64,000 nt of DNA from Chitinophagales bacterium (GCA_046329575.1 JAXLUJ010000009.1:43291-107290); one strand, 5' to 3'; positions 3,823-29,584 are shown, numbered from the stretch's first letter. Made by a program: numbers and translations. The notes: generated by a model not told the origin, from the sequence alone.

Positions 3823-3862
3823 AAGATGAGAGATGAGAGATGAGAGATGAAAGATGAGAACT
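3814..3862. repeat. Heptamer microsatellite, 7 units of GARAGAT (last unit degenerate)
   Basis: Read directly: gaaagat gaaagat gagagat gagagat gagagat gaaagat gagaact. It overlaps the stop codon of the 3205..3822 CDS. Confidence 0.9.
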
Positions 3863-3863
3863 G

Positions 3864-4019
3864 AGCGTTCCGTGAGGGGGCGGAAAGGCGAGCCGAAGGC
3901 GAGGCCCGAAACGAAGTGAAGGGCGGAAGCGATAGCGTACCCTTGCAGCACCCGACCCCGCCTGTGGCTGTTGCCTGGCGAATTGGCTGAAGATGCTTGG
4001 CGGGGGCACGGCAAAAAAA
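3864..4019 (+). repeat. GC-rich intergenic repeat element, copy A (~156 bp, REP-like)
   Basis: The reverse complement matches 13055..13176 plus 15920..15956 over its whole length. By eye identity is roughly 85-90 percent, with a variable central ~40 nt. It ends in an A7 run and lies between convergent genes. The ORFs called here in several frames (3633..4022, 3751..4014, 3782..4009) are artefacts of the repeat. Confidence 0.85.
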
Positions 4020-4022
4020 CAA

Positions 4023-13054: not shown

Positions 13055-13176
13055 TTTTTTTGCCGTGCCCCCGCCAGGCAGCAGCAGTCAATTCGCCGGG
13101 CAGCAGCCATAGGCGGGGTCGGGTGCTGCAAGGGTACGCTATCGCTTCCGCCCTTCACTTCGTTACGGGCCTCGCC
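13055..13176 (-). repeat. GC-rich intergenic repeat, copy B, left part (interrupted by an IS)
   Basis: Matches the reverse complement of 3864..4019 up to ...cgggcctcgcc, where the IS inverted repeat begins. Confidence 0.85.
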
Positions 13177-13241
13177 TGTATCGTCCTAAAAAAAGTTTAC
13201 AGGTTAAAAAATAAGTCCTGTTATAGGTTTACAATTCAGGC

Positions 13242-14189
13242 TTAATCCTGATTGGAGTTTACAAATGTAGTTTTTGGCCGGTAATAATTCTTCCATGTCC
13301 TATGAATTGGAAGGTTATTTCGATGAACGTCTTCAGGGGTCAACATGTTGCAACTCATATGGGGTCGAACTTCATTATAAATCAAAACAGAACGTGTTAG
13401 GATTTCCATTAATTGCCCATCTGTTGGCTGGTAATGGTTTAAGAACTCTTCTTTGATAATCCCATTCACACGTTCAGCAATAGCGTTTTCCAATGGATCG
13501 CCGTTCTCAGTCATACTGATTTTGATGTGGTTAGCTTCTAATAGTTTTACGTAATCAGCCGAACAATACTGTATACCGCGGTCAGAATGATGGATTAGGC
13601 CGGACAACGGCCCACCGGCCATAGTAATAGCCATTTCCAAAGCTTTAACGGTATGTATCGCCTCAAGACTATCCGCTACATGATGCCCAACGATTTTCCT
13701 GCTGTAGGCATCGGTTATGAAGCTGATATATCTAAATCCCAAGGCGGTTTTGTAATAGGTAATATCCGATACCCATAACTGATTAGAAGATGTAGGCGTA
13801 AAGCCGCGTATGATATTGGGGTATTTGCGGAACCAGTGGTTAGATCAGTGTGGTAGTCATTTTCCTACGTTTTTTTCTAATTAATAATTTGTGAGCTGCC
13901 AATAGATCAAATAGCGCATCGCGTCCCATTTTGATTTGATGTTCCAATAAAATGGCTGCAAAAGCAACAGCAGTTTACGGCCACCAATGGCAGGTTGAAG
14001 CGCCGAATTTGATGGACTTCGCTGTAATACCAGTTCCTCTTCAAAAGAGTTGGTTTGCTGTCGCCACTGTTGTTGATAATAAGCCTGTCTGGTTATACCA
14101 AGTAAACAACAGCATCGAACCAGACTTGTTTGGGGTCGGCTGTCTTTAGTTTCACGGATTACTTGGTGTTGGAGTTTTTCGGATGGCAA
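13242..14189 (-). pseudogene. Outer IS transposase orfB (rve/DDE integrase), broken by frameshifts
   Basis: The C-terminal fragment 13242..13742 carries the DDE core (HHSDRGIQYCS...ENAIAERVNGIIKEE). Upstream pieces read in other frames: SNHWFRKYPNIIRGFTPTSSNQLWVSDITYYKTALGFRY, QIKMGRDALFDLLAAHKLLIRKKRRKMTTT, and the 13881..14189 fragment. At least two frame breaks are present. Confidence 0.8.
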
Positions 14190-14580
14190 TCTTATATTCC
14201 TTTTCGGCCAGCGTAATCATACGCTCATAGAGCTCCGAACGAAGTTGTTCGTCTGCCAAACGTTTCTTTAAACGAGCGATTTCAGCCTCCAACATACTGA
14301 GAGACGCCTGCGACTGCTTTTGCGGATCTTTTGATTGAGACAAAGGAAAATCGTTTAGTGCCGCAAAATTACGTAATACTTTTGGTGCATATGGGTCCGC
14401 ATAACCTGCTTTTCGTAGCCACTTGCAAATTATGCCATGGCCGCTCAGGCCATATTTGCGCTCAATGTGCTCTTTGGGCTGACCTGTCTGAAGATATTCA
14501 TCTATAACTTGCTGTTTAAATGATGGTGAATAATAATAAGAGCCTGCAGGTCGTTTCGGATCTTGTTCTTGTTTTGTGTC
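14152..14580 (-). pseudogene. Outer IS orfA body, severed from its start codon by the nested IS
   Basis: Joining 15877..15871 to 14580 and downward reads ATG GAC ACA AAA, giving MDTKQEQDPKRPAGSYYYSPSFKQQVIDEYLQTGQPKEHIERKYGLSGHGIICKWLRKAGY...LEAEIARLKKRLADEQLRSELYERM (HTH plus leucine zipper). The nested IS sits inside codon 2-3. Confidence 0.75.
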
Positions 14581-14641
14581 TGAAGCCCCCCCTAAAACTA
14601 AGATAGGTTAAAACCAGACTGAAAGCACTAATTTCAGTTTT

Positions 14642-14914
14642 ATGAGAAAATCAAAGTTCACGGAAGCGCAGATTGTAAAGGCGCTGGATGAGGAACAGAA
14701 AGGCCGGAAGGCCGAAGACATTTGCAGGGAACTTGGCGTTAGCCGGGCAACGTTTTACCAATGGAAATCGAAGTATGGCGGAATGGACGTAAGCCATTTG
14801 CAACAACTCAAGGCATTGCAGGAGGAGAACCGCAAGCTTAAAGCGATGTATGCGGATTTGGCCTTAGATCACCGCATTCTCAAAGAGGTCATCGAAAAAA
14901 GTTGTAGGGTCTGA
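14642..14914 (+). CDS. IS copy 1 orfA (HTH transposase subunit); C-terminus altered by loss of one A in the slippery run
   Basis: 90-aa ORF identical to copy 2 orfA up to EVIEK. It then reads SCRV, where copy 2 reads KL. Confidence 0.7.
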   Translation: MRKSKFTEAQIVKALDEEQKGRKAEDICRELGVSRATFYQWKSKYGGMDVSHLQQLKALQEENRKLKAMYADLALDHRILKEVIEKSCRV

Positions 14915-14981
14915 ACAGAAACGGCAACTGGTACACCAGCTCAAACAAGAGCAGGTATCAGTACGGTTCGCCGCCCGGATC

Positions 14982-15854
14982 ATGAATATATCCATTGCAG
15001 CCGTTTACTATCAATCGAAGAAGGATGACTCAGCAGTTGTTGCTAAACTCAATACTTTAGCTGAATTAAAGCCAACCCGGGGTTTTGACTATTACTTTGG
15101 CCGTATTCGCAATGAAGGCTTCACATGGAACCATAAGCGGGTGAAACGCGTTTATGATGCGCTACAACTCAATCTGCGGCGCAAAACGCAAGCGAAAGTT
15201 ACCAGTGCGTGAAAAAGTTCCATTACTGCGCCCTAGTGCGCCCAATCAAATGTGGAGTATGGATTTTATGTGCGATACGCTGGCTTGTGGCCGCAAGTTC
15301 AGAACGTTGAACATCATAGATGAGTTTAACAGCGAATTGCTGGATATTGAGATTGACTTTTCGCTACCAGCCAAGCGCGTTATCCGTACGCTGGAAAGAG
15401 CTTCTGGTGCCATGGCAAGCCGATGGCCATACGCGTAGACAACGGCCCAGAGTTCATTAGCAATGCGCTGGAATCATTTTGCAATCAACCGCAGAACAAC
15501 ATTAAGCTGTCTTTTATTCAAAAGGGAAAACCCACTCAAAATGCCTATGTAGAACGTTTTAACCGAACCTTCCGGGAGGATGTGCTGGATGCGTACTCGT
15601 TTAGAACCATTTATCAGGCCCGCAGCGAAGCAGCTTGGTTCCTGGAGGATTACAACAGCCATCATCCTCATGAAGCCCTTCAGGGCATGAGTCCGATTGG
15701 CTATCGCCATGCTGTTGAAAGTGGAAAACTCGCCCCGCGCCAATCCCCGCCGAGTTTACCACATTGCAACAGCGGAACTAATAATAACACCAATAATAAA
15801 TTTTTAACTTCAAACATTGTTAACCGCAAAAAGTCTGGAAATACCCTGTATTAA
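14982..15854 (+). pseudogene. IS copy 1 orfB (DDE integrase), split into three frames
   Basis: ORFs 14982..15212, 15154..15438 and 15423..15854 together reproduce the 290-aa copy 2 OrfB, with frame breaks at A3 to A4 (about 15184) and CC to C (about 15402). Confidence 0.85.
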
Positions 15855-15919
15855 AAATGGGGGGGCTTCATGTCCATTTATAGTTTACATTTTGTGTAAA
15901 CCTATTTTAGGACAAGACA

Positions 15920-15956
15920 GCCTTCGGCTCGCCTTTCCGCCCCCTCACGGAATGCT
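15920..15956 (-). repeat. GC-rich intergenic repeat, copy B, right part
   Basis: gccttcggctcgcctttccgccccctcacggaatgct continues the repeat exactly where 13176 left off. The first 3 nt are the duplicated target. Confidence 0.85.
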
Positions 15957-15961
15957 TGGGT

Positions 15962-17530
15962 TTAGCGGATAACCAGTTTACACATAGTTACAATTTGATC
16001 ATCGCCTGAAAGCGTGGCCATATAGTATCCCGGCGGCAGGTTAGGTAGTTCAGCATCATAATAACTGGAGTAATGGGGCACAACAAAAGAGGCAACATTT
16101 TGCCCCATCGCATTGGTAAGCTGAATTTTTACATGATGGTAACGGTCCCATTCCACCCAGTTGTAATCAAAGCGCACAGCCTGGGAAGCCGGATTCGGTA
16201 AAGGAACCATCCAGGGCTGCCTGCCGGCAGCCTTTAGGCCATCCGGCAGCCCGTTGTATAACGTATCACAAGTAGCGCCCATTTTGCGGCCCAGCCTGTA
16301 ATTTGGAAATAATGGAATGGAGGATGGCATGTTCTTATAGGTTCTGTACTTTCGCCTTCTGAAATCGCAGGCGGCGCCGGTCAAATCGGGTTTCTCTATC
16401 GTATTGATGAAAACGCAAGCTACGGTTGGGCTAATATAAATTTTGCCATCCGGTCCGTAACCGCTGAAGTCGAAAGCACTAATCGCACCAATGATAGAGT
16501 CGATAAAGTTGTCTTGGATGGCAACCGTATCTTTTCCGGCATTTACATCTGCATCATAAAGGTGGTATTGAAAGATGTAATAACCAGCTACCATATACAC
16601 TAATGAATCGTTAGATGCAATCTCAGCAGAAGAAAAAAAATCGGATATCCCACCTAAAGTAGAATCGCGTGGCAGGAAGGTATCTATGATGATGGGATTC
16701 GATAAACGCCCGTTGCATCGGTCAAAGTCAAAAACAGCAGAATTATAAAATCCGGTATGACGCAGCATTTTTTTACCGCTCATCGAAAATACAGTTTTCC
16801 CTCCCGAACCGCCGGGTACCACATTGCCTAAACATTGCTTTTCCACAAAATAAAAGGAATCTTTAGTGAGCAGGTATTTGTGATAGCAGTTGCTGTAAGC
16901 CTCCATGATTATGATCCACCAGTCGCGGCCATTGCCATGGCGGCAAACCCCCAAATGACCGCCGGTGTTGATAGTGCTGTCGATGGCCACATTTTTCCGG
17001 GTAACATGATAGCGTCCATTAATTGGGTTTTTCACTATAGTGGTGTAGTTAAGATAAGAGTTCCAGGGCGCCTCCAGCAGCCCCACATTAATATGAAACA
17101 AATAGATGGTGCTGTCGGTTGGTGCGATTTGCACAAAGGCAAAAGCGCCATAAAGTGCTAACCCGGCATCATTTCCCACTGTAAACTGGTGGCAATATTC
17201 CCACAAGCCGCCATAACCAATACTATCGCCATTGGGAATAATGGCGCCTGCCGTATCAAAAATCCAAAGGCCGTTGGTGTATAATTCCAGATTTCCGGCA
17301 GTATCGGAATAGCTGGTATTGGCTGCATCAAACGCTATATTTCTCTTTTTAGGATAGTGTTTGAATGTATCCAGAAAGGTGGCTTCTTCATTACCGGAAT
17401 AGGGGAACTGTGTACTATCCTGATATTGGGGATGATCGCCCCACATCCACGTATTATCATGCTTTTGTGCATTACTATAAACCCACAAGCAGCAGGCCAA
17501 ATAAATTAGTGTCGTTTTTCTTATTTCCAT
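15962..17530 (-). CDS. Secreted T9SS cargo protein, function unknown (522 aa)
   Basis: Signal peptide MEIRKTTLIYLACCLWVYSNAQ. The C-terminal ~80 aa, PNPASQAVRFDYNW...YYMATLSGDDQIVTMCKLVIR, fits a T9SS sorting domain. Its start overlaps the upstream giant gene's stop by 10 nt. Confidence 0.75.
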   Translation of the reverse strand: MEIRKTTLIYLACCLWVYSNAQKHDNTWMWGDHPQYQDSTQFPYSGNEEATFLDTFKHYPKKRNIAFDAANTSYSDTAGNLELYTNGLWIFDTAGAIIPNGDSIGYGGLWEYCHQFTVGNDAGLALYGAFAFVQIAPTDSTIYLFHINVGLLEAPWNSYLNYTTIVKNPINGRYHVTRKNVAIDSTINTGGHLGVCRHGNGRDWWIIIMEAYSNCYHKYLLTKDSFYFVEKQCLGNVVPGGSGGKTVFSMSGKKMLRHTGFYNSAVFDFDRCNGRLSNPIIIDTFLPRDSTLGGISDFFSSAEIASNDSLVYMVAGYYIFQYHLYDADVNAGKDTVAIQDNFIDSIIGAISAFDFSGYGPDGKIYISPTVACVFINTIEKPDLTGAACDFRRRKYRTYKNMPSSIPLFPNYRLGRKMGATCDTLYNGLPDGLKAAGRQPWMVPLPNPASQAVRFDYNWVEWDRYHHVKIQLTNAMGQNVASFVVPHYSSYYDAELPNLPPGYYMATLSGDDQIVTMCKLVIR

Positions 17531-20500
17531 AGGATTACACTTCGTTTATAAATGATTCGGTCGGCTTGCATCAGGCGCAACTGATAGAATCCCGGCGACA
17601 GATTTTCGGTAAGCATAGAAAGCGTATTGCCGCCATTCGGAGCGCCCTGACGCAAAACGATTTCACCTAAATTATTAATTAGTTCCACGGTTTCGCCCTG
17701 ATACGTACCTCCATAAAGATATAGCACCAGATGATCATTAGCAGGAATGGGATAAACGCGGTACGATCGGTTTTCATTGGCTTTGGTGCTATCAGTAGCC
17801 ATTTCTTTTTTTAAGGCGATACCGGCCTGATCGCAGAAATCAAAATCGTCATAACTTTCAACCGCAATGCCGCTCAACATAGCCCTGGCATTGAAAACTG
17901 CATTCCCGGCTTCCAGATAACACGATTGAGCCAGTTGAACCAAAAAATTGAATTGGCCCTCCTCGTATTGGAGATTAGATGAATCTATTGTTTTCAAGTA
18001 AAGCAGATTTACGGCTTTGGTATAATCCTGGAAATTAGCGTTAGTAGATAATGCTTGCAAAGCGCTGAGCAAATGCGCACGGCGCTGATCAAAAATATCA
18101 CGCCAGGGCGCCCGGATATTTTGTTGAATCACCCGTTCCGCTTCCACATAATCTTGCAAACGTTGGTATAAAGCCTGATTGGTGGTATCCGTAAGGGTGA
18201 CGGAAGTGTCAGGGTTTACCCCGGAAGAATCAATTAACTGCAACCAGGTGGTATCGTTATTTGAGGCGCTGTCTAAGGCAACTAATGCGGCTGCAAACGA
18301 TTGCTGGCGGGCCACACTTTGGCTTAACGAAAGCATTGCCGTTTCGTTCATAGTATAAAGTTCGCGTTGCAAGTGTTCCACTTCCGCGAATTTTCCCAAA
18401 GGGGTGTTGGCTACCGAATCGTAAAACATTCTTTCAACACTTTCCTCATCCAGTGTGTCGGCAATAATGCCCAGTTTTTCCTGCAGGGCTTTAGCGGCTT
18501 CCCAACGGTTTACCTCTTCAAAAAAATCGGGATGGTATTGATTCATCAAAACCATTTCATCGAATTCCGTAAGCTCGCCCGCTTGCACCAACGGCTGCTG
18601 TGTGGTGTTGTTGTCATCACAGGACGGAACAACAGATACTGCTGGGTCATATTTGAACCATTGCGAAGGTCCTATAATTGTATTAGTAGTCGGGCTTTGG
18701 GCGCTACTGCCGGGAGGAATAGGAACACGAAATTGTGATGGTACTCCCTGGAATGCTGAATTCTGATTCCATCCTGCCAGGTTTTGGGAGGAATAATTGC
18801 CGTTCCAGTTATTGCCTTTGGCTTTTTGCTTACCCATTACGCCAGAGGTGGTAATGTGAAGCCCCACATAATTGGCGATGGCGCCATGCCCAATATCATT
18901 CGTTTTAAAATCAGTACCGGAATTCTGTCCTTCAAACCGGAAACCGGCCTTTAGTCCGTAAGCCATATTGCAACTCACCAGCTGGTGGCCGCCGCTATTT
19001 TGAGCAAAACAAAACCCGCGGGGGTAAAGATTGGTATTGTTTGCTGCTCCAGAGGCGCCAGGCAAAACCCCGTAAGCAGTATTGCTTAATACGTCAAAAT
19101 TGCTGCAATTGCTAAAACGAAATGCATTTCTGGTGGTGGCTTGTATCACATTGGCCTTTACCAGATTTCGCTCAACTACCACATTAGCAGCGGTATTATA
19201 AATTCCAGATACATTGGTCATCGATATACCTTCCGCACCATTTTTCAGGCTTACCTTGTTATTGGTAATTTGAAGAGAAGGCTGCTGGCGCGACAAATCA
19301 TCAGAAATGGAGATGCCTACTCCAAGGTTGGCAATGTTCAGCGATTGCTGTATAGTATTAAAGAAGGGCCATTTATCAACTGTAATTGTGTTATCCTGAA
19401 TCTTATGGGCAAACAAATTTACTCCACTTCTGCAAAAATTTAAAACAACACCGGTTGACCAGGGTTCTGAAAAATTAATCGATAAACCCTGACCATCATA
19501 CTGAGTAGGCAAAGTACCAAAACTACTTCCCAGCATATCAATTTTGTTTAATTGGATGGTTATGTTGGATTCAGTACAGTTATTCAGTATGATGCCATTA
19601 AGGCAATAGTTCATGATGTTATTATAAATATATGGTTCGTAGTTTTGTTCAATTTTTATAGCCTTTCTACAACTTTTAAAAAAACAGTTAGAGATATTAA
19701 TACCGGTAATCGCATTGGCTGGATTTGTTTGATTTTTGTTGTACGCATAAATCGCATTTCCATTTCTGGCGCCGGTTCCACCGGAATTTACCGGGAGGTT
19801 GTACTGAACATATGCCCGTGGTCGATCCTCGGCAGGTATGGCATAAAACTGGCATTGCCTGAAGTAAGCCGAACTATGTTTTACAATTGCACCATTAGCC
19901 AGATTACTGAATTTGGCACTGAGCGCTGTGCGGGAGGTAGGTTGGAATAAATTCAGATAGATACCTGCCCATGCCCACATATTATCACCATCCGTAATTG
20001 TACTTGCAGCAGGCATATCGGTTTCATTAATCATACCTGGAAATGGCTTTTTAAAATTGGTAGTTCCCTCAAAACGAACATTTGATCCCATTCTAATGGA
20101 ATAAGAAAACATCGGAGCCGGTAAAATGGCGGAAGATCTTGATGCACAAACGCCAATAAAATTGTCACGGAAAGTAATTGAGCCATATAGGCAGTTCAAA
20201 TCACTATTGTGTTCTAGATAAACCGCATACTGAGCATCTTGAATTTGAACTCTGTCTCCGAACGTAAGGCCCCCGTTAGGATTCACATGAAATCCTTCCC
20301 ACAAACAGCTACCAATAGATTCGAATGTGGTATTTTGAACGCTAAGACGGGCGTTGGAATTGACGATGATATTCGCTCCCGGATAAAGCAGAAACCGGAC
20401 ATTACTGAAGTTGTAATTCGTATTGATGACCAATTTCCCCTGAATAGCAATGGTAGTATTGGCCGCGGGTGAAAAGCCTGAAGTTGGCCAACCCTGAGCA

Positions 20501-23500
20501 GTAATTACATTATTGAGCTGGTTTGTCCCGGATAAAACAATTGAGGCTGGTGAGAAAAAATTAAATGAAGTAGAGGCAGACGAGCCATTGGTCTGTGTTA
20601 CAGTTACGGAATAAGTACCGGTTTGGTACGGGGTCAAACTAGACCCGGAATTATTCAGAGGGGAATTATTAAAACTCCATTGATAGGTTTGTCCGGCCGG
20701 AGCAACGAATTCCTGTACACCGCAAGCGTTAAGTTGACAAGGTAAAATATTTTGGGTAACACTAGCGGTACATCCATTGGGAGCTGTGGCAGTAACAGAA
20801 TATGCACCAGAGCTGCCTACTGAAATGGCCGAGGTATTTGCCTGATTTGACCACATGAAGGTAGATCCTAACGAAGTTGAAGTCGCCGTGATCGTTGCAC
20901 TTTGAGGGGGACATATTGCTTGAAGATCTGCAGATACAGTAACAACAGGATGACATGCTCCATTGACTAGCGGGCCACCTCTGAATGTAGATATAGTTTC
21001 AGTTTGGTTGTTTGGATCACAATATGTTACATAGCGGAATCTTACCGGAAGATCTGGAAACGTAACCGTATTGCAAGGTATATCCAAATCAAATTTTATG
21101 CAGAAGACTCCGTCATTATTATTAAATCCAAACCCTGCATCTACACCCCATAAATTTGCAGCGGTGAATCCTGTTAAGGAAGTACTGGCTAAATTTAATG
21201 AACTCAAATTAACATCATAATCCTTATTGTTGCCGTTCTGAACAACTGTAATACGGTTAGACGGAAAGGCAATTACAATTCCTCCGGGTAAATTATTTGA
21301 ACTGATGTTAAAGTTAGATGGCGTATAATTATCAGGCAAAGAAAATAATATATGAAAATTTCCAATGCCCCCAGATGATGCAGAGTTTAAGCAAGCGCTA
21401 ACTTGCACCGGATTACAATTAGATGCACCAGGTGTAATGGTCGAATTTATCGCTTCGATATGAACAGAATTAATCTTTAAATTAAAATTAAATTGAGACG
21501 GATTATTGCAAAAAGTATTTTGCGTTAACTGATTAATTTCAGGGAAAGGTGTTTCACATCGCCAACTGTACAATATAGGAACAGGCACAAGGTTATCCGC
21601 TGCAGTACATCCGTTAAGCGTAAAATTGATCCTAAATTTCGTAGGGGTATTTACAATCGTTTGAAGGTCGTAAGATAAATAACAGGACCCATTTACTTGT
21701 ATGGTAACAGGATTGATAGTTTGCCAAATATTATTACTCAAGTATTGAACATTGGTCACTGAGAGATCTGTACTTCCATAATTTGCATTCAGAGGAATGG
21801 GAATATTAACCGTACCGGCTGCATTACATGGAAGCATAATCTGAAGATAAATATTTGTATTCTCAGCACCTTGGAAGCCATTTATCCACGGGAAACCGGT
21901 TATGGCGAAGTCTGAGATTATTTCGCTTCCTGTTTGAGTGTTTGATAAGTTAGTAATCTCTAGATTACTATACGATGGAACACTTAAAATGTAATTACCA
22001 TTTATAATATTCCCATCACTTCTAGATGTATGAGCTTGACAATCTGAGTAGCTATTGTATTCAAAATAGGAATCATTTCCTTTTACTGAGTAGGTGCTAT
22101 TTATAGACGTTGTTTGTTGACATAGGGCATGAATGTTAAATCGAGCTCCTTGTTCGAAATATTCATCTCCTAACAAAAGTGTTGGAATATTGTTGATTTG
22201 TACGGTATTAAAAGTGCATAAAGGAGTAATGGCGACCGGATCATTGTAATTTTGTAGAATACCGGATTGGAGTTCTGAACATGTTGAATATTGTGCATTT
22301 AATACATTCAATTCGAAATTAGCTGGTAACACCGGATTAGCCCCCAATCCGTTAGCAGGAATTATTTGGTTATTAGCGCCTAAACAGGAAACATGGCTTA
22401 CTGCGTAAAGATTTCGTTGACTATTGGAATAGGAATAACCTGCAGTGTAAAATTCGACTAATTCCGGTATGAAATTATTAGCTAACGATCCCAAATGAAG
22501 TTTTACTGGATCGTATGCCGGATTTAGTAAACCTGAAAAGCTACCTCCTGACATTAACAAGGGTCTACACTCGTTATGAAATGCATTATAAGCTCCATCC
22601 GCATCAACATAGCGTACGGTCTTGATTCGAAGTTTATCCATACAAGTATTGCTTGGTTTCCACTCCTCAAAATTCCTTTCCTTTATGCTATATACTTTAT
22701 GGATTGCGCCGCCGGCACCTTCACACATGAAGTAAACCAATAAGTTTGGAGAAGCTGAAATGAATGGCCGTGGCGGGGTGGGAACGCTATTCGGAGGTGT
22801 AGGAGAAAAATAAGCGGAATTTAACACTCCCGCACTAGAAACACCGGAATTGCTACTAATAACATTTACAATCGAATTCGGTAAGCTATTAGTTGTTAGA
22901 AACATTGAATTTGTACAACTTAATTCTACTGAATTCGCAGGATTCTGGCATATTTTGAATTCCGGTAAAAATTGAACGGACGAGGCAATGTTGAACTCCG
23001 TTAGATTCAACCCTAAAAAGTCTTCGGCACTGACATGATATAAAAAAGTGACGTTATTTCCAGAAACCACTGAAACTGGGTTTTGAAGGTTAATAATGGA
23101 TGCCGGAATAACACTATTGGGTTGGAAGTAAGCAACATTTCCTCCAGTTGGCTGTAAATTCACCAGATTTGCATTACTGATATTGATCTGATAGTACATA
23201 TCCTTCAATACAACTTGCCGATTTAGTAAAGCCGACCAGTAAGTTTTCCAATCGGAGTATTGATAGCCAAAGCTATGATCAGAGGTACCGTCAAAAAAGA
23301 CTCCTTTGAAATTTGCTCTGAGATGATCCCCAACTATAGATGCGAGTTGATCGACTTCAGGATGAGTAAGAAGGTAGTTCTGGTCAATAGGTGTTATATT
23401 TTGACCATTCACATCAGCAAGTCCGTCGTCGTCGTCGTCTTGATATCCGAAATTAGTTCGCTCAAGTCGGAACGCAGAGTGATCATCTGGAAGGATGCCT

Positions 23501-25665
23501 GGCGTAACACAGCCAGGACATAAAACGTTAAAAGAAAAGCATTGGTCGTTTAAATTAATGAAACAGTCTGTTTGTCCCCCGCAGTCTTGACTGAAACTTG
23601 TTAGTACGTGTAAATCCTGATGACCGTGTTCTTGACCATCAGGCCCAATTTTTAGCGGACAACATCCTCTTACCCAAAAGTGTAACTTTGAGTTTTTAAA
23701 GAAACTCTTGAATTCTTGACAGTTATTTAATTGCAAGGTAGCGATGTCAAACTTTGCGACTATATGCGGTCCAGTATTTGTTATTTCTATTCCTAAAGTG
23801 GGTAACCAGTTTGTTGTACCATTGCTAATGTATGGAGCCGTGGAGTTTGCAGGAATACCATTGATCGGACAAGAAATTAAAATATTTGAAATGTTATTTG
23901 GGCCATCATCAAAAAGTATCTTAAATACTCCACCTGGACTGCCATTTGGACTCGCGCAAAAAAATTGGCAATCGTAATCATTCGCGTCATTATTAGGGAA
24001 ACTTATATTTTTGATCGTATATTCCTCAGGTTCGCTACAGCTATTTGAACTAGGATTAAGGCCAAAATCGGTAAGATCTGTAACTAATTGTTGGTGCGAT
24101 TGGATCAATTCGAGATCAGGGTCATTTTGATTTGGTATTGAGCTATTAGTACTTATACCCGCCATAGTGGTAGGTAAATGAGCTTTATATAAGTTTGTGA
24201 TTTGTCCGTTATTAGCTGTATAAGTACTGTTTTGAGTATTTAGTGTGTAACCATCAACACAATTTTCCTTGTATTTACCCGTAAATGCCCAATGGTTGAA
24301 AAAAATTGGATTATTAAACCCAACGTTGTCCGGACAACATCTAAAAGTTTTAAATCTGATGCTTAACTGATGTCCTGGAGGTAGCGTTTCCACAAACAGG
24401 TGCCAGTCCTTTATAAATACGTCATTTTGGAAACAGGCTGGTGGTGGAAATGACTGGTCGGCAGCTGTTAAAAAATTTGTAAAGGGGTTATTTTGCTGCA
24501 CGCCGCTGAAAACAGCATTGTTTGGTATCGCGAGCGCATTAACATAGTTAAAACTATGAATGTTATTTGCATCATTAATTATGATTGATGCTCTATCAAT
24601 ATAAGTATAATCCGTGTTAAGAGGAGCATAATTGACTAAATTTAATTCAATATCTGATGCCGTTAAATTAGTACTTTCATTAGAAATCAGAAACTCCCAC
24701 TCTTGTTCGGTATTAGTGCAACTATTATCCCAAAACTCCTGATTAGAACTAAAGGGTATCGGTGAAACCCTATATATGTGCACGAAATCCTGATGATTGG
24801 CGTTGTTAAATATCACATTTAACGCTGCTGTGCTTTTATTTGGGTTACAAGAACAACCCCACAACAAGTTAAAATTAGTATTTAGGCCGCCACTGGGCAG
24901 GCAGCCGGTGGCACCAGAAAGGAATACGTCCTGTTCGATTCGTAAATGGTCACCATGGTGCAAATTAATACCGATAGTTAGTAAATCAACATTTATAGGG
25001 AAAATAACAGAATTTCCGCCCTGACCATTGGCCGTAAAGAAGGGTTGCGTTGCATTATTTAGGTAAAATCGAACACTGGTAATATTCACAATAAGCGGTA
25101 TTGAAGCGGCACCGTCAAAAACAAGGGACCCATAAAAGTCCTCCGAACCATTATTAATGTATTCATGACTAACTGTTTGAGTTTGTCCTACTCCGATTTG
25201 GAAGTTCATGGAGTTAGGTAGTAAATAATGGTCGATGAAAGGAAATTTAAAAGGAGTACTTAAGGTGCCTGAAATGGTTGCAGTTGTGGTAATTATTATG
25301 TTGAATGTGGCAGATGCGGCATTCATCGCCGGTATTGCATTACATAGGCCGTCTATTATGTAGTCTATTTTTTGGTTAGGGTTGGAATTTAACACAGTAT
25401 GGTCAAAACTAAATTTTAATACAGATCCTTGTCTGATTACAGAAAATCCCGCGGGTAAAGTGGCATGATAGTTAAAGGCAACCGTTGGCAAAGTCACATC
25501 TATAACGAAATCAGCGTTTACAAAATTTGATGTTGTTAAAGAAAGCGTGTTTGATTCACAAGCATTCACTGCTGTGGGCATAGTTGAATGAACCTCCTGC
25601 GCCTGAATGTTTTTTGAAAATGTAAGGGTTATTAGAAATACGGTTATAATTAGGTTTGTTTTCAT
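17521..25665 (-). CDS. Giant secreted T9SS cargo protein (2714 aa): N/S/T-rich N-terminal region, Ig-like modules, parallel beta-helix repeats, helical region, T9SS CTD
   Basis: A single uninterrupted ORF with signal peptide MKTNLIITVFLITLTFSKNIQAQ. Ig-like segments include ICPPQSATITATSTSLGSTFMWS...YSVTATAPNGCTASVTQ. Around residues 1700-2250 there are repetitive N-x-x-F/I-x-x-N segments typical of right-handed beta-helix. The C-terminus, YRVYPIPANDHLVLYL...FYQLRLMQADRIIYKRSVILWK, is CTD-like. Confidence 0.85.
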   Translation of the reverse strand: MKTNLIITVFLITLTFSKNIQAQEVHSTMPTAVNACESNTLSLTTSNFVNADFVIDVTLPTVAFNYHATLPAGFSVIRQGSVLKFSFDHTVLNSNPNQKIDYIIDGLCNAIPAMNAASATFNIIITTTATISGTLSTPFKFPFIDHYLLPNSMNFQIGVGQTQTVSHEYINNGSEDFYGSLVFDGAASIPLIVNITSVRFYLNNATQPFFTANGQGGNSVIFPINVDLLTIGINLHHGDHLRIEQDVFLSGATGCLPSGGLNTNFNLLWGCSCNPNKSTAALNVIFNNANHQDFVHIYRVSPIPFSSNQEFWDNSCTNTEQEWEFLISNESTNLTASDIELNLVNYAPLNTDYTYIDRASIIINDANNIHSFNYVNALAIPNNAVFSGVQQNNPFTNFLTAADQSFPPPACFQNDVFIKDWHLFVETLPPGHQLSIRFKTFRCCPDNVGFNNPIFFNHWAFTGKYKENCVDGYTLNTQNSTYTANNGQITNLYKAHLPTTMAGISTNSSIPNQNDPDLELIQSHQQLVTDLTDFGLNPSSNSCSEPEEYTIKNISFPNNDANDYDCQFFCASPNGSPGGVFKILFDDGPNNISNILISCPINGIPANSTAPYISNGTTNWLPTLGIEITNTGPHIVAKFDIATLQLNNCQEFKSFFKNSKLHFWVRGCCPLKIGPDGQEHGHQDLHVLTSFSQDCGGQTDCFINLNDQCFSFNVLCPGCVTPGILPDDHSAFRLERTNFGYQDDDDDGLADVNGQNITPIDQNYLLTHPEVDQLASIVGDHLRANFKGVFFDGTSDHSFGYQYSDWKTYWSALLNRQVVLKDMYYQINISNANLVNLQPTGGNVAYFQPNSVIPASIINLQNPVSVVSGNNVTFLYHVSAEDFLGLNLTEFNIASSVQFLPEFKICQNPANSVELSCTNSMFLTTNSLPNSIVNVISSNSGVSSAGVLNSAYFSPTPPNSVPTPPRPFISASPNLLVYFMCEGAGGAIHKVYSIKERNFEEWKPSNTCMDKLRIKTVRYVDADGAYNAFHNECRPLLMSGGSFSGLLNPAYDPVKLHLGSLANNFIPELVEFYTAGYSYSNSQRNLYAVSHVSCLGANNQIIPANGLGANPVLPANFELNVLNAQYSTCSELQSGILQNYNDPVAITPLCTFNTVQINNIPTLLLGDEYFEQGARFNIHALCQQTTSINSTYSVKGNDSYFEYNSYSDCQAHTSRSDGNIINGNYILSVPSYSNLEITNLSNTQTGSEIISDFAITGFPWINGFQGAENTNIYLQIMLPCNAAGTVNIPIPLNANYGSTDLSVTNVQYLSNNIWQTINPVTIQVNGSCYLSYDLQTIVNTPTKFRINFTLNGCTAADNLVPVPILYSWRCETPFPEINQLTQNTFCNNPSQFNFNLKINSVHIEAINSTITPGASNCNPVQVSACLNSASSGGIGNFHILFSLPDNYTPSNFNISSNNLPGGIVIAFPSNRITVVQNGNNKDYDVNLSSLNLASTSLTGFTAANLWGVDAGFGFNNNDGVFCIKFDLDIPCNTVTFPDLPVRFRYVTYCDPNNQTETISTFRGGPLVNGACHPVVTVSADLQAICPPQSATITATSTSLGSTFMWSNQANTSAISVGSSGAYSVTATAPNGCTASVTQNILPCQLNACGVQEFVAPAGQTYQWSFNNSPLNNSGSSLTPYQTGTYSVTVTQTNGSSASTSFNFFSPASIVLSGTNQLNNVITAQGWPTSGFSPAANTTIAIQGKLVINTNYNFSNVRFLLYPGANIIVNSNARLSVQNTTFESIGSCLWEGFHVNPNGGLTFGDRVQIQDAQYAVYLEHNSDLNCLYGSITFRDNFIGVCASRSSAILPAPMFSYSIRMGSNVRFEGTTNFKKPFPGMINETDMPAASTITDGDNMWAWAGIYLNLFQPTSRTALSAKFSNLANGAIVKHSSAYFRQCQFYAIPAEDRPRAYVQYNLPVNSGGTGARNGNAIYAYNKNQTNPANAITGINISNCFFKSCRKAIKIEQNYEPYIYNNIMNYCLNGIILNNCTESNITIQLNKIDMLGSSFGTLPTQYDGQGLSINFSEPWSTGVVLNFCRSGVNLFAHKIQDNTITVDKWPFFNTIQQSLNIANLGVGISISDDLSRQQPSLQITNNKVSLKNGAEGISMTNVSGIYNTAANVVVERNLVKANVIQATTRNAFRFSNCSNFDVLSNTAYGVLPGASGAANNTNLYPRGFCFAQNSGGHQLVSCNMAYGLKAGFRFEGQNSGTDFKTNDIGHGAIANYVGLHITTSGVMGKQKAKGNNWNGNYSSQNLAGWNQNSAFQGVPSQFRVPIPPGSSAQSPTTNTIIGPSQWFKYDPAVSVVPSCDDNNTTQQPLVQAGELTEFDEMVLMNQYHPDFFEEVNRWEAAKALQEKLGIIADTLDEESVERMFYDSVANTPLGKFAEVEHLQRELYTMNETAMLSLSQSVARQQSFAAALVALDSASNNDTTWLQLIDSSGVNPDTSVTLTDTTNQALYQRLQDYVEAERVIQQNIRAPWRDIFDQRRAHLLSALQALSTNANFQDYTKAVNLLYLKTIDSSNLQYEEGQFNFLVQLAQSCYLEAGNAVFNARAMLSGIAVESYDDFDFCDQAGIALKKEMATDSTKANENRSYRVYPIPANDHLVLYLYGGTYQGETVELINNLGEIVLRQGAPNGGNTLSMLTENLSPGFYQLRLMQADRIIYKRSVILWK

Positions 25666-25683
25666 AGTGAAGCCCCCCCATTT

Positions 25684-26646
25684 TTAATACAGGGTATTTC
25701 CAGACTTTTTGCGGTTAACAATGTTTGAAGTTAAAAATTTATTATTGGTGTTATTATTAGTTCCGCTGTTGCAATGTGGTAAACTCGGCGGGGATTGGCG
25801 CGGGGCGAGTTTTCCACTTTCAACAGCATGGCGATAGCCAATCGGACTCATGCCCTGAAGGGCTTCATGAGGATGATGGCTGTTGTAATCCTCCAGGAAC
25901 CAAGCTGCTTCGCTGCGGGCCTGATAAATGGTTCTAAACGAGTACGCATCCAGCACATCCTCCCGGAAGGTTCGGTTAAAACGTTCTACATAGGCATTTT
26001 GAGTGGGTTTTCCCTTTTGAATAAAAGACAGCTTAATGTTGTTCTGCGGTTGATTGCAAAATGATTCCAGCGCATTGCTAATGAACTCTGGGCCGTTGTC
26101 TACGCGTATGGCCATCGGCTTGCCATGGCACCAGAAGGCTCTTTCCAGCGTACGGATAACGCGCTTGGCTGGTAGCGAAAAGTCAATCTCAATATCCAGC
26201 AATTCGCTGTTAAACTCATCTATGATGTTCAACGTTCTGAACTTGCGGCCACAAGCCAGCGTATCGCACATAAAATCCATACTCCACATTTGATTGGGCG
26301 CACTAGGGCGCAGTAATGGAACTTTTTCACGCACTGGTAACTTTCGCTTGCGTTTGCGCCGCAGATTGAGTTGTAGCGCATCATAAACGCGTTTCACCCG
26401 CTTATGGTTCCATGTGAAGCCTTCATTGCGAATACGGCCAAAGTAATAGTCAAAACCCCGGGTTGGCTTTAATTCAGCTAAAGTATTGAGTTTAGCAACA
26501 ACTGCTGAGTCATCCTTCTTCGATTGATAGTAAACGGCTGCAATGGATATATTCATGATCCGGGCGGCCCGAACCGTACTGATACCCTGCTCTTGTTTGA
26601 GCTGGTGTACCAGTTGCCGTTTCTGTTCAGACCCTACAACTTTTTT
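25684..26646 (-). CDS. IS copy 2 orfB (DDE/rve integrase domain), expressed as OrfAB by -1 frameshift
   Basis: The ORF track gives 25684..26556 (290 aa). The frame stays open upstream to the slippery site (KKVVGSEQKRQLVHQLKQEQGISVRAARIMNIS...). DDE region: WSMDF...IRVDNGPEF...NAYVERFNRTFRED. Confidence 0.8.
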   Translation of the reverse strand, partial: KKVVGSEQKRQLVHQLKQEQGISTVRAARIMNISIAAVYYQSKKDDSAVVAKLNTLAELKPTRGFDYYFGRIRNEGFTWNHKRVKRVYDALQLNLRRKRKRKLPVREKVPLLRPSAPNQMWSMDFMCDTLACGRKFRTLNIIDEFNSELLDIEIDFSLPAKRVIRTLERAFWCHGKPMAIRVDNGPEFISNALESFCNQPQNNIKLSFIQKGKPTQNAYVERFNRTFREDVLDAYSFRTIYQARSEAAWFLEDYNSHHPHEALQGMSPIGYRHAVESGKLAPRQSPPSLPHCNSGTNNNTNNKFLTSNIVNRKKSGNTLY

Positions 26647-26900
26647 TCGATGACCTCTTTGAGAATGCGGTGATCTAAGGCCAAATCCGCATACATCGCT
26701 TTAAGCTTGCGGTTCTCCTCCTGCAATGCCTTGAGTTGTTGCAAATGGCTTACGTCCATTCCGCCATACTTCGATTTCCATTGGTAAAACGTTGCCCGGC
26801 TAACGCCAAGTTCCCTGCAAATGTCTTCGGCCTTCCGGCCTTTCTGTTCCTCATCCAGCGCCTTTACAATCTGCGCTTCCGTGAACTTTGATTTTCTCAT
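26634..26900 (-). CDS. IS copy 2 orfA (HTH plus leucine-zipper transposase subunit)
   Basis: 88-aa ORF, MRKSKFTEAQIVKALDEEQKGRKAEDICRELGVSRATFYQWKSKYGG...LKALQEENRKLKAMYADLAL, typical of IS3-family OrfA. Confidence 0.85.
   Translation of the reverse strand: MRKSKFTEAQIVKALDEEQKGRKAEDICRELGVSRATFYQWKSKYGGMDVSHLQQLKALQEENRKLKAMYADLALDHRILKEVIEKKL
26640..26646 (-). promoter_or_regulatory. Programmed -1 ribosomal frameshift heptamer A AAA AAG of IS copy 2
   Basis: The minus strand reads ATC GAA AAA AAG TTG TAG in the orfA frame. The orfB frame is exactly -1 from it. A_AAA_AAG is the classical IS3-family slippery motif. Confidence 0.6.
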
Positions 26901-27157
26901 AAAACTGAAATTAGTGCTTTCAGTCTGGTTTTAACCTATCTTAGTTTTAGGGGGGGCTTCAATAGGATAATAGTTTTAGACAGAAGTAAAATTTATTACT
27001 GAAACAATTTCTTGTTCTAAAGATAAACCAATAATTACAATATTTTTTTAAAAATTACAACCTACTTATATAACCCTCCTGTAGCCTGTCTTTCTACTTT
27101 CTGGCACAACTTTTTAGCCTACTTTCGCGCTTCTAAAATTCAATAGCTCTGTTCATT

Positions 27158-29584
27158 ATGCCGCGCGGCTTTCGGTGTTTACTTCTTATTTGGTGCTGGA
27201 TGTGTACGGTTGCCGCGTCGGCGCAACATACCGTTATGCTTCAGGGTCAGGTTACCGATGTAAAAAGCCTCCCGGTGAAAGATGCTATGATTTATCTGCC
27301 CAATCAACCGAATGGCGTGATGAGCAATGCCGGAAATTTTTCGCTGCAACTGCTCCCCGGAAATTATGCCATCACTTTCACTTCTGCCGAAATGATTCCA
27401 TTAACTGTAGCGGTACATCTTGCTCAGGATACCGTAATAACAGTGATCCTTCAAAAAGAACGCACGTTGAACGAAGCTGTTGTGAGTACCAAAAAGATGG
27501 AACGCCAAAGCCGTCATGATGCCGATGGCGTGATGAGTCTTACACCAGGAAATTTCAATTCGATACCCGCATTTATGGGCGAGCACGATCCGATGCGCGC
27601 CGTGCAGATGCAGCCGGGGGTTCAAAGCGGTAGCGAAGGGGGCAGAGGTATTTTTATCAGAGGCGGTAGTCCCGATCAAAATCTGATGCTGCTCGACGGC
27701 GCTCCTGTTTACAATCCATCGCATATCTACGGATTCATTTCAGTGTTCAATGGCGATGCCGTAGAAAGAGTTTCAATTTACAAAGATCGTTTGCCGGCGC
27801 GTTACGGCGGAAGATTATGCTCGGTAATTGATGTGGATATGGACGAAGGTAATACCAATCGGCTGAGAGGCGCATTGGCATTGGGAGTGGTGGCCTCGCG
27901 ATTCCATTTAGACGGACCGCTTTCACGCAATAAAAAAACAACCTTCTCGCTTTCACTTCGCGGTTGCTATATGGGTTTGTTCACCGGTCCTATTTCGCGG
28001 AAACAGTTTGCTGCATCAGGTTACAACGGCAATGTGCTCTATTATTTTGGCGATGTGAATGTGAAACTGGTTCATCGCTTTTCTGAAAAAAGTAAGCTTT
28101 CGTTTTCTTTTTTTACCAATAACGACTGGTATCAATTTTCCCGTAAAGGAGAAGCACATGTAAAAAATGTGTTGCAGTCGAGCAACACCGTAAATGAACT
28201 GAACTGGGCGAACTACGCTTCTACACTGGCGTGGAACCACCGCATCGGCGAAAACTGGAAACTGTTGCACCGCCTCACTTTCGGGCGCTACCAATTGCAT
28301 TCAAAAAACATTTACAACACCGCCGCCAAACTCACCGATATTCCGGGTGTAGAATACAATTTCAACTCCCAAAGCAACCGCTATTCTCATATCACCAACA
28401 TTAATTTTCAGAATGAAGCCACTTATTTCACCCAAAAACAACAATTCACTTTTGGTGTGGAAGTAGGGGAGCAGTTGTACCAAACCGGTACCGGAAAATC
28501 CAGTTCCGACGAAACCGGTTCGGGACGCACCGAATACGATTTGAACAACCCACTCATCAAAGCTACAGAAGTGGCCGCTTATGTTGATGAAACGTACACC
28601 CCCGTTCAGAATTTAACCATGCATTTGGGTTTCCATGCCCGGATGTATTATCAGCAGAAAGCTTTTGCCAGTTTGTTGCCCCGTTTCAGTTTAACCTGGA
28701 ATCCTTACAAGCGTTTGTTCTTACGCGGATCGGTTTCCGGTACTTTTCAGCCGCTTCATTTGCTCACGGCCGCCACGGCCGATATTTTCAGCGATTTGTG
28801 GGTGCCGGCTACAAAAGCAACAGCTCCCGAAACCGGCTGGAACTTTTCAGGCGGTTTACTGCACAAACTGCCATTGGGTTTTGAGTGGAGCGTAGATGGT
28901 TTTTATCGCTTAATGGAAAATGTGATCGATTACAAAGAAGGTGTTTCGCCGGGTGCGGCCGACGGCAATTGGCAGCAACAAGTGATGACCAATGGAATCG
29001 GACGAAGTTATGGGGCTGAATTTTATGTAGGCAGAACGTTTGGACGCATTAACGGCGCAGTGGCTTATACCTTATCGTGGAGCGATCGCAAATTCAGTGA
29101 AGTAAACGATGGCAAATTCTATCCTTACAAATACGACCGCAGACATAATCTGGCAGCGCAACTCACGTTTCAGGCTACCAAAAATATTGAACTCGGTCTT
29201 TCGTATGTTTATGGAAGTGGTTACCACTATACCCTTCCGGTGCAGTATTTTTATACCTATAGCGGCAATACTAATTTCGATTATCTGCATTCTATAAATA
29301 CCGCCACCAGCCGGGGCGAGAGTGTGCCGGTATATACTTCGCGTAATGGCTATCAACTTCCTTCTTTCCAACATCTGGATGTTTCATTTACGTGGCATAA
29401 GAAGAAAAAATATGTAGAGCATGAAGTAAACGTGAGTGTTTACAATGTGTACAGCCATTTCAATCAGTTTGCTGTGTATTCCGAAATCAAATTTAATCCC
29501 GACGGAACAGTAAGCCGTACCTATAAGCAGGTGAGTTTGTTCCCGGTGCTTCCTTCCATCACCTACACCATTCATTTGTTATGA
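27158..29584 (+). CDS. TonB-dependent receptor with N-terminal carboxypeptidase-regulatory-like domain
   Basis: 808-aa ORF with a signal peptide and a CarbopepD_reg-like region (LQGQVTDVKSLPVKDAMIYL). Plug motifs are PGVQSGSEGGRGIFIRGGSPDQNLMLLDGAPVYNPSH. A long beta-barrel ends in an aromatic-rich C-terminus. Confidence 0.9.
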   Translation: MPRGFRCLLLIWCWMCTVAASAQHTVMLQGQVTDVKSLPVKDAMIYLPNQPNGVMSNAGNFSLQLLPGNYAITFTSAEMIPLTVAVHLAQDTVITVILQKERTLNEAVVSTKKMERQSRHDADGVMSLTPGNFNSIPAFMGEHDPMRAVQMQPGVQSGSEGGRGIFIRGGSPDQNLMLLDGAPVYNPSHIYGFISVFNGDAVERVSIYKDRLPARYGGRLCSVIDVDMDEGNTNRLRGALALGVVASRFHLDGPLSRNKKTTFSLSLRGCYMGLFTGPISRKQFAASGYNGNVLYYFGDVNVKLVHRFSEKSKLSFSFFTNNDWYQFSRKGEAHVKNVLQSSNTVNELNWANYASTLAWNHRIGENWKLLHRLTFGRYQLHSKNIYNTAAKLTDIPGVEYNFNSQSNRYSHITNINFQNEATYFTQKQQFTFGVEVGEQLYQTGTGKSSSDETGSGRTEYDLNNPLIKATEVAAYVDETYTPVQNLTMHLGFHARMYYQQKAFASLLPRFSLTWNPYKRLFLRGSVSGTFQPLHLLTAATADIFSDLWVPATKATAPETGWNFSGGLLHKLPLGFEWSVDGFYRLMENVIDYKEGVSPGAADGNWQQQVMTNGIGRSYGAEFYVGRTFGRINGAVAYTLSWSDRKFSEVNDGKFYPYKYDRRHNLAAQLTFQATKNIELGLSYVYGSGYHYTLPVQYFYTYSGNTNFDYLHSINTATSRGESVPVYTSRNGYQLPSFQHLDVSFTWHKKKKYVEHEVNVSVYNVYSHFNQFAVYSEIKFNPDGTVSRTYKQVSLFPVLPSITYTIHLL

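Follow-up and report, generated by a model that had tools for sequence, protein, structure and literature searches.

Insertion sequences (ISs) of the IS3 family are recognised by a common set of hallmarks: TG/CA termini, a -1 frameshift at an A6G-type motif, and helix-turn-helix (HTH) and DDE motifs in the encoded proteins (PMC6211511). IS-borne promoters have been described upstream of cfiA and nim in Bacteroides (IS1186, IS942 and IS1168), as well as for IS6110 in M. tuberculosis (PMC9330008), and an entry in the reference list of PMC6211511 refers to IS407 as a 'gene-activating' IS. Here we describe an intact IS3-family element (IS copy 1) that ends 2 nt upstream of the ATG of a giant gene in an environmental Chitinophagales bacterium. 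The locus lies in a stretch of 64,000 nucleotides from a metagenome-assembled genome (MAG) (GCA_046329575.1 JAXLUJ010000009.1:43291-107290); this whole stretch is referred to below as the window, and positions are counted from its first letter. As in the cfiA and nim cases, the IS sits directly upstream of an intact gene, is co-oriented with it and resides in a Bacteroidota host. It differs from them in that no outward promoter could be recognised, in that the target encodes a giant, putatively secreted protein rather than a resistance determinant, and in that the IS end is only 2 nt from the ATG, such that the whole 5' leader would be IS sequence. The features on which the analysis turns are as follows.

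25668..26961, minus strand: IS copy 1, intact IS3-family insertion sequence, 1,294 bp (termini, OrfAB profile match, twin in the window)
26950..26961, minus strand: left terminal inverted repeat (IRL), perfect 12-nt core TGAAGCCCCCCC (sequence)
25668..25679, minus strand: right terminal inverted repeat (IRR) GGGGGGGCTTCA, stopping 2 nt short of the giant gene ATG (sequence)
26962..26965, minus strand: target-site duplication, upstream copy, CTAT on the minus and ATAG on the plus strand (sequence)
25664..25667, minus strand: target-site duplication, downstream copy, CTAT, its last two bases being the A and T of the giant gene ATG (sequence)
26634..26900, minus strand: orfA, 88 amino acids (aa), HTH_Tnp_1 (PF01527, E = 3.7e-22; Pfam match)
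26640..26647, minus strand: A AAA AAG slippery heptamer, putative programmed -1 frameshift from orfA to orfB (sequence, frame position checked)
25684..26556, minus strand: orfB, 290 aa from an internal ATG, rve and rve_3 DDE integrase core, stop TAA at 25684-25686 (Pfam)
17521..25665, minus strand: giant gene, 2,714 aa, with a signal peptide, an Asn/Ser/Thr-rich composition and a near-threshold type IX secretion system (T9SS) type A C-terminal domain (open reading frame (ORF), profiles)
15962..17530, minus strand: second operon gene, 522 aa, with a signal peptide and a T9SS type A C-terminal domain (profiles)
26966..27157, no strand assigned: native divergent intergenic region, 192 bp, 28.6% GC, cut off from the giant gene by the IS (sequence)

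From the arrangement of these features we consider it probable that the locus records a recent, simple insertion, which left the operon dependent on read-through and changed its start region, with expression probably reduced and deregulated and with no programmed switch. A recently active IS3-family element would have inserted into a 4-bp target, CTAT, that overlapped the start codon of the operon. Since then the operon would be transcribed only as a 3' extension of transcripts crossing the IS, and these would be initiated from the native promoter, from that of the transposase, which is normally weak, or from both. The translation start would be altered as well, by a run of seven G residues (G7), stronger predicted structure, a competing AUG at -16 and an A at -3. 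The net effect would most likely be lower and deregulated operon expression, arising from a one-way mutational event, and a second, inverted copy of the IS downstream of the operon would represent a separate insertion.

The anatomy of IS copy 1 is that of an IS3-family element. Its termini read TG...CA, and the 12-nt ends are perfect inverted repeats whose similarity continues more faintly for a few bases inward (judged partly by eye); the terminal 12-mer occurs four times in the 64-kb window, against 0.2 occurrences expected. orfA terminates shortly past the A AAA AAG heptamer, which lies in the correct frame position, a sequence signature of frameshifting. A -1 shift at this heptamer yields a reconstructed OrfAB of 405 aa that matched the NCBIfam model for IS3 family transposases (NF033516) at 263.3 bits (cutoff 160), the match spanning positions 2-369 of the model's 369; the orfB product alone scored 189 bits against the same cutoff. 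The DDE core of OrfB matched retroviral integrase cores among solved structures. Every hallmark listed in PMC6211511 for the family (IS911, IS2, IS150, IS407) was also found here, and the likeness extends over the length of 1,294 bp, the imperfect TG...CA repeats, the HTH of orfA, the DDE core of orfB, the short target duplication and the presence of several identical copies. The long C7/G7 run within the termini is unusual compared with the IS3 family. Because OrfB was less than 50% identical to every plasmid-borne IS3-family transposase, the element is, by this comparison, undescribed, yet typical of its family. We presume it to be IS407-like, a subgroup label that reflects only length (about 1.1-1.4 kb) and the 4-bp duplication, set against the ISfinder groupings.

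IS3-family elements transpose by a copy-out/paste-in route through a circular intermediate that carries a junction promoter. Inspection by eye found no Bacteroidetes-type -33 element in the IRR and no -7 element in the IRL. Related variants of the IS, L002 and L006, were found in unrelated projects. L006 (run DRR438477) is a short-read contig of 1,293 bp, almost exactly one IS unit, and could be either a collapsed repeat or a circular transposition intermediate.

At the downstream junction, read on the minus strand, the right end of IS copy 1 is followed by CT (25667-25666) and then by ATG AAA ACA from 25665. The orfB stop codon TAA (25686..25684) is separated from this ATG by 18 nt, and the IS genes share the minus strand with the giant gene. 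The original prediction, made from the sequence of this DNA, had placed an intact IS 2 nt upstream of the ATG, with transposase genes co-oriented with the giant gene and the orfB stop 18 nt away, and had noted that a 4-bp duplication, ATAG, contains the A and T of the ATG, which would be preserved only through that duplication. All of this was borne out, the intactness of the IS by its termini and the end-to-end NF033516 match of OrfAB, and the duplication by CTAT on the minus strand at both sides. The staggered cut duplicated the first two bases of the start codon and left a complete CTATG on the gene side; that the giant ORF and its ATG are intact is seen directly.

Duplications of 4 bp were observed at three independent copies of the element: CTAT at copy 1, TGTC at copy 2 (described below) and CACT at the metagenome relative L002. 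Because 4-bp duplications recur at two other sites, we take the one at copy 1 to be genuine and not a 1-in-256 accident. Removing the IS and one CTAT reconstructs an empty allele, ...TCT GTC TAA AAC TAT TAT CCT ATG AAA..., which contains GTCTAAAACTATTATCCTATGAAAACAAACCTAATT and in which the precise empty site is GTCTAAAACTATTATCCTATGAAAACAAACC. This allele has an in-frame TAA 5 codons upstream of the ATG, with no start codon in between. Given this in-frame stop and the signal peptide encoded downstream, the ATG at 25665 is, on the reconstructed sequence, the native start of the giant gene. Everything upstream of position -2 of that gene is now IS sequence. The AT-rich region of 192 bp that would hold the native promoter, correctly described in the original prediction as divergent with a TonB-dependent receptor gene and about 1.3 kb away, is displaced from the giant gene by 1,298 bp.

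The same insertion was found outside the MAG. Short-read contigs of two other runs, SRR26348422 (L001) and SRR26348418 (L005), contain the identical junction between native upstream sequence and the IRL, and on this comparison the upstream junction (native intergenic region to IRL) is real and not an assembly join. Misassembly through the repeats was considered and ruled out by the matching duplications at both window copies, together with the same junction in the short-read contigs of other runs. In a sibling sample (run SRR26348421) the same IS occupies a different site (L003, positions 1-466). Because the junction recurs in other runs and the same IS is found elsewhere in a sibling run, these contigs establish that the insertion is genuine, that the element is active now or was recently, and that the occupied allele recurs across samples. 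At the L003 site, the IS breaks into an ORF at its 3' end, and the final ~50 residues of that ORF (KVYPNSLEASGKLYIESYS...VVDLNGI) resemble a T9SS C-terminal sorting domain by eye; this tail had no Pfam or NCBIfam match, and the sorting-domain reading is unconfirmed. Exact look-ups of the giant, 522-aa and OrfB proteins returned no record, and a protein cluster look-up led to the MAG and a handful of short-read contigs and to nothing else. A 24-nt pattern from the 5' end of the giant gene had 0 matches in genome and metagenome collections, from which the species seems to be absent, and the IS terminus had 0 matches in metagenome contigs.

The operon that the insertion affects encodes two proteins, both from intact ORFs (2,714 and 522 codons without a stop), and the 522-aa gene overlaps the end of the giant gene by 10 nt. 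The giant protein (MFN8310127.1, U0T73_09210, on a 169-kb contig of the MAG) starts with a signal peptide, MKTNLIITVFLITLTFSKNIQA/Q. Its residues 2637-2711 matched C-terminal sorting domain models at 22.5 bits against a cutoff of 23 (TIGR04183) and at 24.1 against 27 (PF18962); these matches are full-length and placed at the extreme C-terminus, slightly below threshold. The earlier designation as a T9SS gene thus has the full-length tail match and the signal peptide on its side, with tail scores just under both cutoffs; the 522-aa partner has a T9SS tail above threshold (27 bits against 23, TIGR04183). No Pfam domain was found in the giant protein apart from this tail, and no relative was found among solved structures. 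Among 5.8 billion clustered proteins, it had, besides the MAG's own entry, two matches covering at most 7% of its length, making it a near-orphan. It contains 11% Asn and is high in Ser/Thr, and the GC content of its gene is 40.2% compared with 44.1% for the window. Residues ~1750-2250 appear by eye to form a beta-helix-type repeat region. It is reasonable, though not proven, to regard the giant protein as a large secreted or surface T9SS cargo.

We then considered which transcripts could reach the operon. No intrinsic terminator was predicted on either strand of 25400-27300, an interval that includes the whole IS. Since the IS runs in the direction of the operon and carries no predicted terminator, a transcript begun at the native promoter could still cross it into the giant gene. 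The original prediction held that native promoter control had been replaced; the separation of about 1.3 kb stands, and the co-oriented IS with no predicted terminator would still permit read-through. That prediction had overlooked the possibility of read-through from the native promoter, along with the second, inverted IS copy and the occurrence of the same upstream junction in two other runs.

Bacteroidota promoters follow a TTTG or TAnnTTTG consensus (PMC9330008). Exact TAnnTTTG did not occur on the gene strand in 25560-27160, and the best candidate reading outward from the IS was the following.

25734..25741, minus strand: best outward -7-like box TAAATTTT, 5/6 matches to TAnnTTTG, no -33 TTG, not above chance (motif scan)

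This box is 68 nt before the giant gene ATG and has no -33 TTG at a distance of 16-22 nt. Across the window, exact TAnnTTTG occurred at about the frequency expected from base composition (our own estimate) and was seldom placed upstream of genes (by eye, from the ORF list). In this organism, scans for promoter motifs do not discriminate, and they cannot separate the IS end from the native region.

An alternative that we judge unlikely is that an outward promoter near the IS right end, or a strong transposase transcript, drives or up-regulates the giant operon constitutively. The geometry would suit it, since the IS points the same way as the operon, stops 2 nt before the ATG and contains no predicted terminator; its final 110 nt, with 33.6% GC, are rich in A and T and include the TAAATTTT box; and precedents are known, among them IS1186 at cfiA in Bacteroides fragilis (PMC9330008). 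In the divergent relative L006, the left end and orfA are ~97% identical to IS copy 1 and orfB 63-83% (~75%), while IS positions 1201-1260 are somewhat better conserved, at 88%; a 2-nt indel in the same relative shifts the frame of the orfB tail. Such mosaic conservation suggests that IS variants have recombined or that a stretch near the right end has a conserved non-coding function, and the contrast between orfA (97%) and orfB (about 75%) would also be explained by recombination. Against an outward promoter, the box lacks its -33 TTG, and boxes of equal quality (5/6) occur about once per 200 nt, with three or four of them in the native region itself. Matches of the sigma-70 type numbered 3, compared with 3.7 in shuffles, and neither a TTTG nor a -35-like element faces outward in the right end. 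With only 2 nt between the IS and the ATG, no hybrid promoter could span the junction. The outward promoter put forward in the original prediction was therefore not demonstrable, its best box being a 5/6 match without a -33 TTG and at chance frequency.

Translation of the giant gene would also begin in an altered context. The insertion swaps an A/T-rich leader for ...AAAAAUGGGGGGGCUUCACU-AUG, in which the G7 run lies at about -8 to -14 and position -3 is an A, and it brings in an additional start codon.

25679..25681, minus strand: out-of-frame AUG from the IS, 16 nt upstream of the giant start, opening a 41-codon frame that overlaps the start (sequence)

Shine-Dalgarno pairing is not used in Bacteroidetes. 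Over about 100 nt around the start, the predicted minimum free energy was -13.7 kcal/mol for the occupied allele and -5.8 kcal/mol for the empty allele. PMC6847099 describes initiation in Bacteroidetes as tuned by mRNA structure and upstream nucleotides, with a positive effect of A at -3 and an avoidance of nearby AUGs.

Several points weigh against the conclusion that the insertion left the operon with reduced, read-through-dependent expression. The mean predicted pairing probability near the start hardly differs between the occupied and empty alleles (0.47 and 0.42), and the A at -3 would favour initiation. The motif scans being powerless here, a functional outward promoter is possible in the AT-rich last 110 nt of the IS. 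More generally, attenuation, silencing and activation are not distinguishable from sequence.

The more extreme outcome, in which the insertion fully silences the operon by polarity and starts it towards pseudogene status, seems to us still less likely than activation. The promoter is displaced by 1.3 kb, transposase expression in IS3 elements is normally very low, and the start region gains from the IS a competing upstream AUG, a run of G residues and a stronger predicted fold. On the other side, no terminator is predicted in the IS and both ORFs are intact, although the insertion is too recent for the latter to say much.

The remaining alternatives concern the surroundings of the operon, which contain a second copy of the IS and further repeats.

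14581..15870, plus strand: IS copy 2, 1,290 bp, inverted with respect to copy 1, with a TGTC duplication at 14577-14580 and 15871-15874 (sequence)
13177..15919, minus strand: ISx, a different, frameshifted IS3-family element, 1,449 bp without its insert, with a 3-bp duplication GCC (plus strand) (sequence)
27158..29584, plus strand: divergent TonB-dependent receptor gene, 808 aa, Plug domain (Pfam)

Copy 2 differs from copy 1 at six positions, all of them homopolymer length changes, with zero substitutions over about 1.29 kb. The lack of substitutions between the two copies marks the IS activity as recent. The homopolymer indels disrupt orfB in copy 2 and may reflect errors of unpolished long reads within a repeat and not true decay; if the six are real, one IS copy may be inactive. 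General frameshift errors of the assembly were considered and set aside: one suspicious ORF pair outside the ISs proved on checking to be two separate intact genes, and frameshifts have so far been found only in copy 2 and ISx. Copy 2 is nested in ISx, inserted at codon 2 of ISx orfA (ATG|GACA). ISx itself has inverted repeats TGTCTTGTCCTAAAATAGGTTTACAC and TGTATCGTCCTAAAAAAAGTTTACAG, its reading frames are broken by several frameshifts, and its tip is 42 nt from the stop of the 522-aa gene. The operon is thus bracketed by inverted IS twins, the downstream copy lying just past it. Because both copies are flanked by matching duplications of their own, and the sequences outside the pair differ, the bracketed structure is best read as the product of two separate insertions in place, with no inversion of the segment since; the flanking twins could nonetheless mediate a future inversion or mobilisation of the operon.

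Both insertions in the window fall within 4 nt of an ATG, and a common target motif suggested by eye (AAACTAT...AAAACAA) was examined and rejected as being at chance level. The local alignment score of the target sites was matched by 70% of shuffles and beaten by other gene starts, and the L002 and L003 insertion sites fall within coding sequence. Alignments of the target with the IS's own ends scored 10-11, values that carry no shuffle control.

A GC-rich repeat of ~165 nt is present in two window copies of ~93% identity, one at 13055-13176 and 15920-15961 and the other, inverted, at ~3855-4020. The first begins directly after the stop of the 522-aa gene and is split by ISx. The repeat had no Rfam match, and its predicted fold was not more stable than shuffles (z = 0.78); the only known RNA families found in the 64-kb window were two tRNAs. 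The TonB-dependent receptor across the intergenic region had a single relative in species-representative genomes, 44% identical and with different neighbours.

The flanking twins could be taken to make of the orphan, adhesin-like 9.8-kb T9SS operon an IS-controlled cassette, transcribed from the IS and switchable, invertible, deletable and mobilisable, a proposal that we hold to be improbable. If true, populations of an environmental Bacteroidota would have a means of varying a giant surface protein, for instance where phages or grazers exert pressure.

Marginally less probable again is that the insertion represents one state of a reversible phase switch, in which precise excision restores native control and ON and OFF alleles coexist. 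IS492 (Pseudoalteromonas eps), IS256 (staphylococcal ica) and the IEE-assisted IS629 resemble the present case in that the IS interrupts control of a surface-related locus and in that the target duplication would permit exact restoration on precise excision; the present IS differs in lying outside the ORF and in having been observed only in the occupied allele. Here the ORF is intact and precise excision would restore the wild-type allele exactly; the IS, too, is intact and recently active, given its identical copies (homopolymer lengths aside) and the further site in the sibling sample L003. Transposase-dependent precise excision of IS3-family elements is known with the IEE protein (PMC9330008, PMC9397093). 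Against a switch, the occupied junction was the one form recovered (from the MAG and two other runs), and neither of two public collections yielded an IS-free allele or empty site, a weak point in that both collections seem to be without this species. No IEE homologue was seen in the one 64-kb window, in which none was sought. Precise excision rarely happens spontaneously across a repeat of 4 bp. The phase or antigenic switch proposed in the original prediction is unsupported, with only the occupied junction found and no evidence of precise excision.

That the two inverted copies and the 9.8-kb operon form a composite transposon, which delivered an orphan operon of lower GC content, can be dismissed as highly improbable: two inverted copies free of substitutions (six homopolymer indels) do bracket the operon, and the giant protein is essentially without homologues among 5.8 billion proteins and its gene lower in GC (40.2% versus 44.1%), but a separate duplication flanks each copy (CTAT/CTAT and TGTC/TGTC), the sequences at the outer flanks differ (TGTC at 14577-14580 and ATAG at 26962-26965, plus strand), without copy 1 the ATG follows seamlessly on an AT-rich leader that has an in-frame stop, copy 2 lies inside another IS, and the low GC content is explained by 11% Asn and high Ser/Thr. 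The architecture is like that of Tn10 and Tn5 in having two inverted copies of one IS around a cargo segment, and differs in having no shared outer duplication; the unit did not arrive by transposition.

A recent, simple insertion that left the operon to read-through is thus the account that we favour. An IS landing beside a gene start is a common event, and nothing here goes beyond known kinds. For this MAG it carries a caution, in that the regulation of the giant gene should not be taken as the ancestral state. The locus is useful for the annotation of an undescribed IS3-family element and as a marker of recent IS activity in the population. If the IS does govern expression of the giant protein, it would offer a natural example of mobile-element control of a T9SS cargo in an uncultured environmental bacterium.

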